From Escherichia coli (GTDB lineage Bacteria > Pseudomonadota > Gammaproteobacteria > Enterobacterales > Enterobacteriaceae): a stretch of DNA of 64,000 bases. Positions 18,001-21,000 of this stretch are shown here, piece after piece. Location of the stretch: assembly GCF_003334405.1 (NCBI RefSeq), contig NZ_QOWM01000002.1; one strand, 5' to 3'. Made by a program: the position numbers. Each line of letters starts with the position of its first letter. Positions within the stretch are counted from its first letter, which is position 1.

Positions 18001-21000
18001 ATTATCATAGGGCTGTTTATTGCATGCTTATTAGCATCCCCGTTTTGGATTTTCCTTGCTATAGGTAGCTTTATCGATAACCAACGCGGTGCAACATTAA
18101 GTAGTACTTTGGATCCGGCTACAGGTGTCGATACCTCGGAATTAGCAAGATTATTTAACCTTTTCTCTGCTGCGGTTTATCTTACTAAAGGTGGAATGAA
18201 CTTTATTCTGGAAACTCTTTGGCAAAGTTATAATTTATGGCCTTCAGGCAATTTTAATTTTCCTAAATTAGAGCCTTTATTCTCATATATTAATAACATA
18301 ATGACTCATACTATCGTTTACGCAAGCCCCGTGATTGCCGTTATGCTGGGCGGTGAGGCTGTCCTGGGATTGCTGGCACGTTATGCTTCACAACTAAATG
18401 CTTTTGCCATTTCACTGACTGTCAAAAGTGCGCTGGCATTTTTAATATTAATTATTTATTTTGGCCCAATACTGGCTGAACGAGTAATGCCGTTATCCTT
18501 TTTCCCAGAACAATTGCAACTATACATTGAGAAATAGAGTGTTTCATGGCCAATAAAACTGAAAAGCCAACACAAAAGAAACTCCAGGATGCTTCTAAAA
18601 AAGGGCAAATTCTAAAAAGTAGAGACTTAACCATCTCTGTAATAATGCTTGTGGGTACTTTATATCTCGGATATGTTTTTGATGTGCATCACATTATGTC
18701 GATTCTTGAATACATCCTTGATCATAACGCTAAACCAGATATTTGGGACTATTTTAAAGCTATGGGGGTTGGTTGGTTGAAAACGAACATTCCTTTTTTG
18801 CTGGTTTGCATGTTCACAACAATACTTGTCTCCTGGTTTCAAAGTAAAAAGCAATTAGCAACTGAAGCTGTTAAATTTAAGCTTGATTCATTGAATCCAG
18901 TAAATGGCTTAAAGCGTATATTTGGCTTAAAAACCGTAAAAGAATCTGTTAAAGCAATTCTTTATATTATTTTTTTTGCATTGGCGATCAAAGTATTTTG
19001 GAGTAATCATAAATCACTGCTTTTTAAAACTCTTGATGGAGATATCATATCTTTATTATCAGATTGGGGAGAGATGCTATTCCTTCTCATACTGTATTGT
19101 CTCGGCAGTATGATAATTGTCTTAATTTTTGATTTTATCGCTGAATATTTTTTATTTATGAAAGATATGAAAATGGATAAACAAGAAGTTAAAAGAGAAT
19201 ACAAGGAGCAAGAAGGAAATCCAGAAATTAAGTCTAAACGCAGAGAGCGCATCAGGAAATTCTTTCTGAGCAATTGAAGTCTGATGTCAGTAATAGTCGT
19301 TTGATGATTGCCAACCCTACTCACATTGCAATAGGGATATACTTTAAGCCACATCTTTCACCTATTCCATTGATTTCTGTAAGAGAAACTAATGAGGTAG
19401 CCTTAGCCGTAAGGAAATATGCAAAGGAAATCGGAATACCAATTATCACAGATAAAAAATTAGCACGAAAAATTTATGCTACCCATCGTCGCTACGATTA
19501 TGTTAGCTTCGAAAATATAGATGAAATATTACGTCTTCTGCTGTGGCTTGAAGATGTGGAGAATGCTGGACAACCTGTTCCAGATGAACAGCTCTCTTCA
19601 GAAGATAAATTCATTGAAGGTGAAGAGAAAGAAATCGAGAATAAAGACGATAATTTAAAAAATTAAACATCTGTCGTAGTCAGAAATTTATAAGAATCTA
19701 CACGCAAAAACCGTGTAGATTCATTATTTAATGAGTTAAATGATCTTGTGAAATGACAAGCAATTGATACATACTCATCTCTTTATAAGCTGGAACTGTA
19801 GTAACCTGTGCAAATTCGCGATATAGCTTTTGCTCCAGTTCTGCTGTAGATATATATTCCGGGTGTTCGCTAAAGAACTGTCTTGCATCTACTATCGCTT
19901 GGGATTCGCCACTTCTTTTATTTTGATACTCCTTTAATGAATTTTCTCTGGTGCATGCAGAGAGCAACGATATCAGCGCGATGGTTATTATGATTTTACT
20001 ATTATATCCTACTAATGACATATCAACTTTCTCTTACGCAAGATTGGAGTTTAAAATAATGTTTATCCCATTCACAGAGTGCTATAAACAACTCAACAGT
20101 ACCTTTTATGTTAAGTTTATTTAGGGCTCTTATTTTGTGATATGATACTGTTTTATAATCAATTCCTTTAATAATGGCTACTTGTTTTAACGAGTAAGAA
20201 ACACATAACCGCAGGATATCTATATCATCATGGGTAAGTGCTTCTTGTGTGGAATACACATTTTGTGTATGAAGATTCGAAATCAGGAAATGCGTTAAAT
20301 CAGATAATCTAATATTCTTATTGATCCTGATGAAATTGTTGCTTAAAAGGATGTTTACAGGTTCTGTATTTGGTTTGAGATTTCGATGTTGATGCTCATC
20401 AATAACAACGAATGAATGCCCAAGATCAACCAACGCAACTAAATCGCTGTAATATTCTTTTTGGGATGCTAATAATGCATTAGTGACTACAGTGAAGTAG
20501 ACATCACTGGAAAAGACTTGCATATGCCAACCTGTACTCTAAAATCATTTAGGGTAAATATTACGTGTAAAAGTTAAAATAAGAGTAATTGTTATATTTG
20601 CTTAACATTGGGGGAATAGGGTTTATACCTTAAATTGTAAATAAAGTTATGCATAGAGGCATTTAAAATAGTCCTCGAAATTATAATTTTTTATTCTGTG
20701 TCATCATATTTTGGTCATGAAATTTCCGTCTTGTTACACTACTCTAAACTAGAGCTTATGGAATTAGCGGGTGCTATTCATGGAAAATAATGATAAATTC
20801 TTATCACAAGACTTATTGGAATCTTATGCCATTCGTTTGTTGAGCGGACCATTGAATGGATGCGAGTATGAAATACTTAATGGGCGTCTACTTGTTATCA
20901 TTGGTAATGATGTTTCGTTAGGAAGAAGTGATGCTTTTTCTGAGTTACCAGAAAACACAATAGTCGTTCCTTATGGCGAGCTTACAGGTAGTTTTGAGAT

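Follow-up and report, generated by a model that had tools for sequence, protein, structure and literature searches.

How does the gene for an export switch protein come to lie in two reading frames, broken just ahead of the motif at which its product would cleave itself? The question is raised by epaS, a gene of the SctU/SpaS family in the island for the second type III secretion system of Escherichia coli (ETT2); the gene occupies positions 18546-19666 of a 64,000-nucleotide (nt) stretch of contig NZ_QOWM01000002.1 (assembly GCF_003334405.1; below, the window, whose coordinates count from its first letter). The NPTH autocleaving domain of SctU is needed for substrate-specificity switching. 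A preliminary description, made from the sequence alone, gave epaS 243 N-terminal codons ending at 19277 and 130 C-terminal codons, NPTH included, in another frame, and favored a step of decay over a programmed frameshift. Both the list of open reading frames (ORFs) and the sequence itself agree with that arrangement (Table 1), and our analysis leads to the same view of its origin: epaS in the window is almost certainly an inherited pseudogene, created by the loss of one C as part of the decay of ETT2. Relaxed selection, intact orthologues, the lack of a slippery site and the losses of eiv and other ETT2 genes are all in agreement with this view.

The lesion was placed by aligning the window with O157:H7, and then with 18 further sequences. 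We observed directly that one C is missing from a CGCC at codons 235/236: intact epaS alleles read CGC CAT, encoding Arg235 and His236, and at the break the window reads GAGCG-CATCAG against GAGCGCCATCAG in the intact gene, a reading shared by O157:H7 and nine other sampled intact alleles (six distinct). The C that remains at 19250 serves two codons, as the end of the last native one (CGC, 19248-19250) and as the start of the first downstream homologous one (CAT, 19250-19252). The two ORFs do not share a frame (18546 mod 3 = 0, 19274 mod 3 = 2), and three-frame translation of 19150-19330 indicates that the C-terminal frame is open from 19238. Homology had been described as switching frame at about 19240-19277, within cgcagagagcgc, and the missing C falls inside that tract; from the break, 21 codons lead to the Asn of NPTH.

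The intact gene tells us what has been lost. In O157:H7, epaS is an intact coding sequence of 1122 nt with a 373-residue translation, and EC974 is among the other intact carriers. Residues 1-341 of the 373-residue product align with Shigella SpaS (8axk_K; E=8e-108), and this alignment crosses the site of the break without interruption (query RRERHQEILSEQ vs RRELHIEILSEQ). The intact allele also aligns with C-domain structures of SpaS, YscU and EscU, and its NPTH falls where the SpaS and YscU chains are cleaved, as befits the SctU family: the chains of the cleaved C-terminal fragment, 3c01_E and 2vt1_B, begin at residue 258. The alignment with SpaS and YscU that the preliminary description had proposed as a check thus places the frameshift just upstream of NPTH; the possibility it had allowed, that homologues might be split as a matter of course, was not borne out, the intact alleles and SpaS being single ORFs. 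Because intact 1122-nt alleles occur in other lineages, and because their product aligns end to end with SpaS, we regard a single ORF as the ancestral and normal structure of epaS. The intact alleles come in two lengths: a TGA at codon 371 (window 19656-19658) gives 370 residues in EC974, SCU-105, NA3664 and others, O157:H7 and the ECONIH1 group read through this codon to 373 residues, and the deletion-allele group has TTA there.

Each half of the broken gene still resembles its family. Residues 1-235 of the first fragment match positions 1-235 of the EscU/YscU/HrcU profile NF006017 of NCBIfam (E=3.7e-103), and residues 2-123 of the second match positions 245-366 (E=6.4e-53); together with the alignment of the intact O157:H7 allele to SpaS, these matches give homology to the SctU/EscU/YscU/SpaS switch proteins over the full length. 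The fragments score 345.6 and 180.2 bits, both under the curated cut-off of 394 bits, and no continuous ORF joins the membrane and switch domains in the window. Since the ORF is split and each fragment stays under the cut-off, we classify epaS in the window, from its sequence, as a remnant of an SctU family member and not as a functional member. If repaired, it would have the four-transmembrane (four-TM) N-domain, linker, NPTH and C-domain of Shigella SpaS 8axk_K, Salmonella SpaS 3c01, YscU 2jli and EscU 3bzl. The gene order sctR-S-T-U of the SpaS/SctU systems is also that of the window. The difference lies in the product: SpaS/SctU is one polypeptide, whereas epaS of the window is broken 21 codons before NPTH.

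The broken allele is widespread. Of 5426 complete E. coli genomes, 3124 have a match to the 1121-nt epaS stretch; every match is chromosomal, and the matched copies are annotated as export-apparatus switch proteins of the EscU/YscU/HrcU family. The preliminary description had suggested comparing the tract 19230-19280 across strains, and this comparison was informative: a 60-nt tract (19221-19280) carrying the C deletion is 100% identical in 1980 of the 5426 genomes, including those of IAI1, O104:H4, O103, O111:H8 and enterotoxigenic E. coli strains. For the intact allele, a 61-mer from O157:H7 found 317 exact matches, a lower bound (intact alleles carry nearby single-nucleotide polymorphisms) that we do not use as a frequency. 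The sampled deletion alleles form a tight group, at most 1.5% apart, with the nearest intact allele, that of EC974, at a distance of 1.8% and the others at 2.2-5.4%. On this distribution we take the C deletion to be an ancient, lineage-wide inherited allele, not one peculiar to the window's strain. The annotation by PGAP/RefSeq already labels epaS as frameshifted in EC-14-2-9, IAI1 and others, so that the gene is already recorded there as a pseudogene and the finding is of an ordinary, already-known kind.

We also considered a mutational hotspot at the break, and rejected it. In F2_81, another 1-nt deletion lies 4 nt upstream (gene position ~701, window ~19246), a deletion plus substitution reading AGAG-GCTCCAT in an allele 2.9% divergent from that of the window. 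It is found in one of the 5426 genomes, as a private event or an error.

Relaxed selection on the deletion allele was likewise observed directly. With the frame restored, six deletion-allele sequences segregate for 16 nonsynonymous and 3 synonymous changes, which fits the neutral expectation (binomial p=0.78), while eight intact alleles show 21 nonsynonymous vs 57 synonymous changes (Fisher p=6.7e-6 for the contrast between the two sets). Pairwise ratios of nonsynonymous to synonymous polymorphism (pN/pS) are ~0.4-2.3 for pairs of deletion alleles, as against 0.03-0.15 for pairs of intact alleles. Further lesions have accumulated on deletion alleles: a -1 at position 29 (S43), +7 T (Ec-U14-2), -1 T (Ceylon31 and 3045); EC-16-35 has IS1 inserted, and some copies are truncated. 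Thus epaS in the window carries a disabling lesion that same-species orthologues lack, and its allele shows both relaxed selection and secondary lesions, as expected of a pseudogene. The T8 run at 18970-18977 varies in length (+7 T in Ec-U14-2, -1 T in Ceylon31 and 3045, -3 T in ecoli019): either the pseudogene has a secondary hotspot of indels here, or some of the assemblies contain homopolymer sequencing errors.

The partners of epaS have been lost as well. Relative to O157:H7 (L002, the reference coordinates), the window is without 8496-17222, 8.7 kb that hold a GhoT-like gene, eivF, sctC, an invE-like gene, sctV, sctN, eivI and most of eivJ. The inv module had been described as missing, and the alignment identifies its absence as this deletion. 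At the junction, window 14012-15777 corresponds to L002 6735-8495 and window 15769-29372 to L002 17223-30835; the 9-nt overlap of the flanks suggests a deletion between short repeats. An 8.74-kb isoform of deletion at the right end of ETT2 has been described (PMC11068852), and the 8.7-kb right-end deletion of the window matches it. The junction is present in 1941 complete genomes, near the count of carriers of the C deletion (1980), and also in strain 3045, which belongs to the most divergent deletion-allele subgroup among the assemblies of the selection test; EC974, the closest carrier of an intact epaS, retains the eiv module. As for the genes expected to accompany an SctU gene, epaP, epaQ and epaR (sctR, sctS and sctT) are intact directly upstream, and the island's sctV, sctN and sctC are deleted.

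Some points weigh against our interpretation of epaS as a pseudogene. One or both fragments may be produced: the downstream TTG overlaps the upstream TGA (TTGA, 19274-19277), an arrangement in which reinitiation would be possible in principle. The selection test draws on six deletion-allele sequences and 19 sites, by per-site counts that leave tree and recombination aside. Finally, phenotypes have been reported for degenerate ETT2 loci, attributed to regulators and other genes and not to epaS specifically (PMC7058095). Even so, we infer that no functional product would come from epaS in the window.

Carried further, the first of these points would make epaS a split gene, its membrane fragment and autocleavage domain made as two polypeptides, the second by reinitiation at the TTG, with some role retained, for example in cross-talk with another system of type III secretion (T3SS) or with flagellar export. 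The overlap of stop and start invites this idea, as do the 130-residue ORF, which holds the whole folded C-domain, solved as a stand-alone structure in SpaS, YscU and EscU, and the intact state of epaP, epaQ and epaR. However, the TTG is a weak start: we found no convincing Shine-Dalgarno sequence at the usual distance from TTG 19274, the nearest AGGA (19254-19257) lying 16 nt upstream, beyond the usual spacing. The changes in deletion alleles, moreover, are mostly nonsynonymous in both parts (nonsynonymous to synonymous, 11:1 before the break and 5:2 after it), descendants carry extra disabling indels, and SctV, SctN and SctC are gone from the locus. Because substitution is neutral in pattern in both halves and secondary lesions have followed, a retained function of the split gene is very unlikely. 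We give similarly little credence to a more specific form of the idea, in which an N-fragment and a free NPTH domain would arise through reinitiation at the TTGA and one of them would be kept, with EpaP/Q/R, to modulate export by the flagellar system or by the T3SS of the locus of enterocyte effacement (LEE).

Could the two frames instead be rejoined during expression, with full-length EpaS regained some of the time through a programmed -1 ribosomal frameshift or transcriptional slippage? A -1 shift anywhere inside 19238-19277 would rejoin them, and neither part of epaS has gained extra stops in the window. Yet a scan found no slippery heptamer of the form X XXY YYZ in the 40-nt overlap 19238-19277, and 19200-19300 contains no homopolymer as long as 5 nt. 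Genes of the dnaX type, which use a programmed -1 frameshift, combine such a heptamer with an arrangement that is conserved under purifying selection; epaS has neither. The gene is a single ORF in other lineages, as are all solved homologues and every characterised SctU/FlhB protein, and its substitutions on the deletion allele are neutral (16:3). With descendants adding further frameshifts and the partner genes deleted, we consider programmed recoding vanishingly improbable.

There is practically no chance that sequencing or assembly dropped a C from a gene that is in truth intact: single-base indels are a common artefact, and ecoli019 shows several T-run deletions that resemble such errors, but the break lies in CGCC, away from any run of 5 nt or more, the same tract recurs in 1980 independently sequenced complete genomes, and the deletion follows a clade of closely similar alleles. 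From the recurrence of the tract, the lack of a homopolymer and the tightness of the deletion-allele group, it follows that the deletion is an inherited allele and not an artefact.

Our interpretation of epaS as a pseudogene can be put as a course of events. In this view, the CGCC at codons 235/236 lost one C in an ancestor from which a large E. coli lineage descends, so that translation from the normal start would now give 235 native and 8 aberrant residues and then terminate, cutting the membrane domain off from the NPTH autocleaving cytoplasmic domain. The same lineage carries the 8.7-kb deletion, which took out the genes for the secretin, SctV and the ATPase along with other eiv genes, and epaS has since drifted neutrally, gaining more lesions in some descendants.

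The rest of the island is also degraded. Besides the lesion of epaS and the loss of eiv, the window holds at least six further ETT2 lesions, in epaO, orgA, ygeK, an iagB-like transglycosylase gene, ygeF and a GH15 gene (Table 1); still open are epaP/Q/R, etrA, eprH/I/J/K, ygeG/H/I and an orgB-like ORF. The 3' end of the GH15 gene abuts the junction of the 8.7-kb deletion. In EC-14-2-9, which matches the epaS stretch with 100% identity, the genes of the island run sctR-sctS-sctT-[epaS]-etrA-eprHIJK-orgA..., between tRNA-Gly/xdh at one end and ygeH-yqeG at the other.

Table 1. Features of epaS and its surroundings in the window (positions counted from the first letter of the window)
Feature	Position	Strand	Remarks
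1-nt deletion site	19250..19250	+	one C lost from CGCC at codons 235/236 (reference position 705)
Upstream ORF	18546..19277	+	243 codons; ATG start; TGA stop 19275-19277
Downstream ORF	19274..19666	+	130 codons; TTG start; product begins MKSDVSNSRLMIANPTHIA
epaS 5' part	18546..19250	+	native codons 1-235: four-TM export-apparatus domain and start of cytoplasmic linker, ending ...EIKSKRRER
epaS 3' part	19250..19666	+	-1 frame relative to the start; intact-gene codons 236-373 (HQEILSEQLK...), whole autocleaving cytoplasmic domain
Out-of-frame tail of upstream ORF	19251..19277	+	8 aberrant codons, IRKFFLSN, then TGA 19275-19277
NPTH autocleavage motif	19313..19324	+	AAC CCT ACT CAC; 21 codons downstream of the break
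epaP (SctR), epaQ (SctS), epaR (SctT)	16833..18537	+	upstream neighbours, all still open
Junction of 8.7-kb eiv (inv-like) deletion	15769..15777		flanks overlap by 9 nt in the O157:H7 alignment
GH15 gene (pkgA/ygeQ region)	14154-15763		next to tRNA-Gly; compared with the intact gene of EC974, internal stop at codon 265
orgA	23313-23893		-1 at 23364; 581 nt
iagB-like transglycosylase gene			-1 at 25473
epaO			frameshift
ygeK			stop at codon 52
ygeF			-2

Comparison with single strains adds several observations. The orgA of strain 3045 is, like that of the window, 581 nt long, and is annotated as frameshifted; EC-14-2-9, otherwise 99.9% identical to the window, has an extra C and an open orgA, a difference that could be due to reversion, recombination or assembly. 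The PrgH homologue eprH (20771-21961) is intact in the window: counted from GTG 20771, the first in frame, it has 396 codons, and from the start used in annotation (20780) it encodes 393 residues. The annotations of EC-14-2-9, which lacks an A at 21126, and of O157:H7 give it as frameshifted. Because eprH is open in the window and frameshifted in EC-14-2-9, even near-identical strains do not share the same set of broken genes. EC-14-2-9 further has a 9-kb integrase/ISEc12 island by tRNA-Gly and a copy of IS421, and the window has neither (comparison points: window 13998/13982 and 15180/15165 vs L001 5123-14087 and 15287-16619).

This picture accords with what has been reported for ETT2. According to PMC3977695 and PMC7058095, Ren et al. 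(2004, J Bacteriol 186:3547) described its "widespread mutational attrition"; for every strain of group B1, the locus was reported to be inactive (Ren et al. 2004, through PMC3977695, PMC7058095 and PMC3032704). To the extent that these citing papers convey that account, nothing of substance differs in the window: it is the same island by glyU, with large deletions and scattered frameshifts and stop codons. In O157:H7 (Sakai/TR01), ETT2 is also degenerate, with an internal stop in epaR and a frameshift in eprH (PMC3977695 alongside the annotation). The two loci, however, have decayed in opposite places: O157:H7 keeps epaS and eiv intact, and the window has epaR and eprH open, epaS broken and eiv deleted.

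What, then, does the broken switch gene mean for the organism? Because the secretin, SctV, the ATPase and other eiv products have been lost, ETT2 in the window's strain can neither build an injectisome nor form a secretion machine. The state of epaS matters little beyond correct annotation. The missing C of epaS, like the 8.7-kb eiv deletion, stably marks a very large lineage of E. coli and is found in ~36% of complete genomes. The neutral pattern that followed the lesion makes a clean, small example of pseudogene drift, and the deletion allele could act as a control for claims of residual function in degenerate ETT2 loci.
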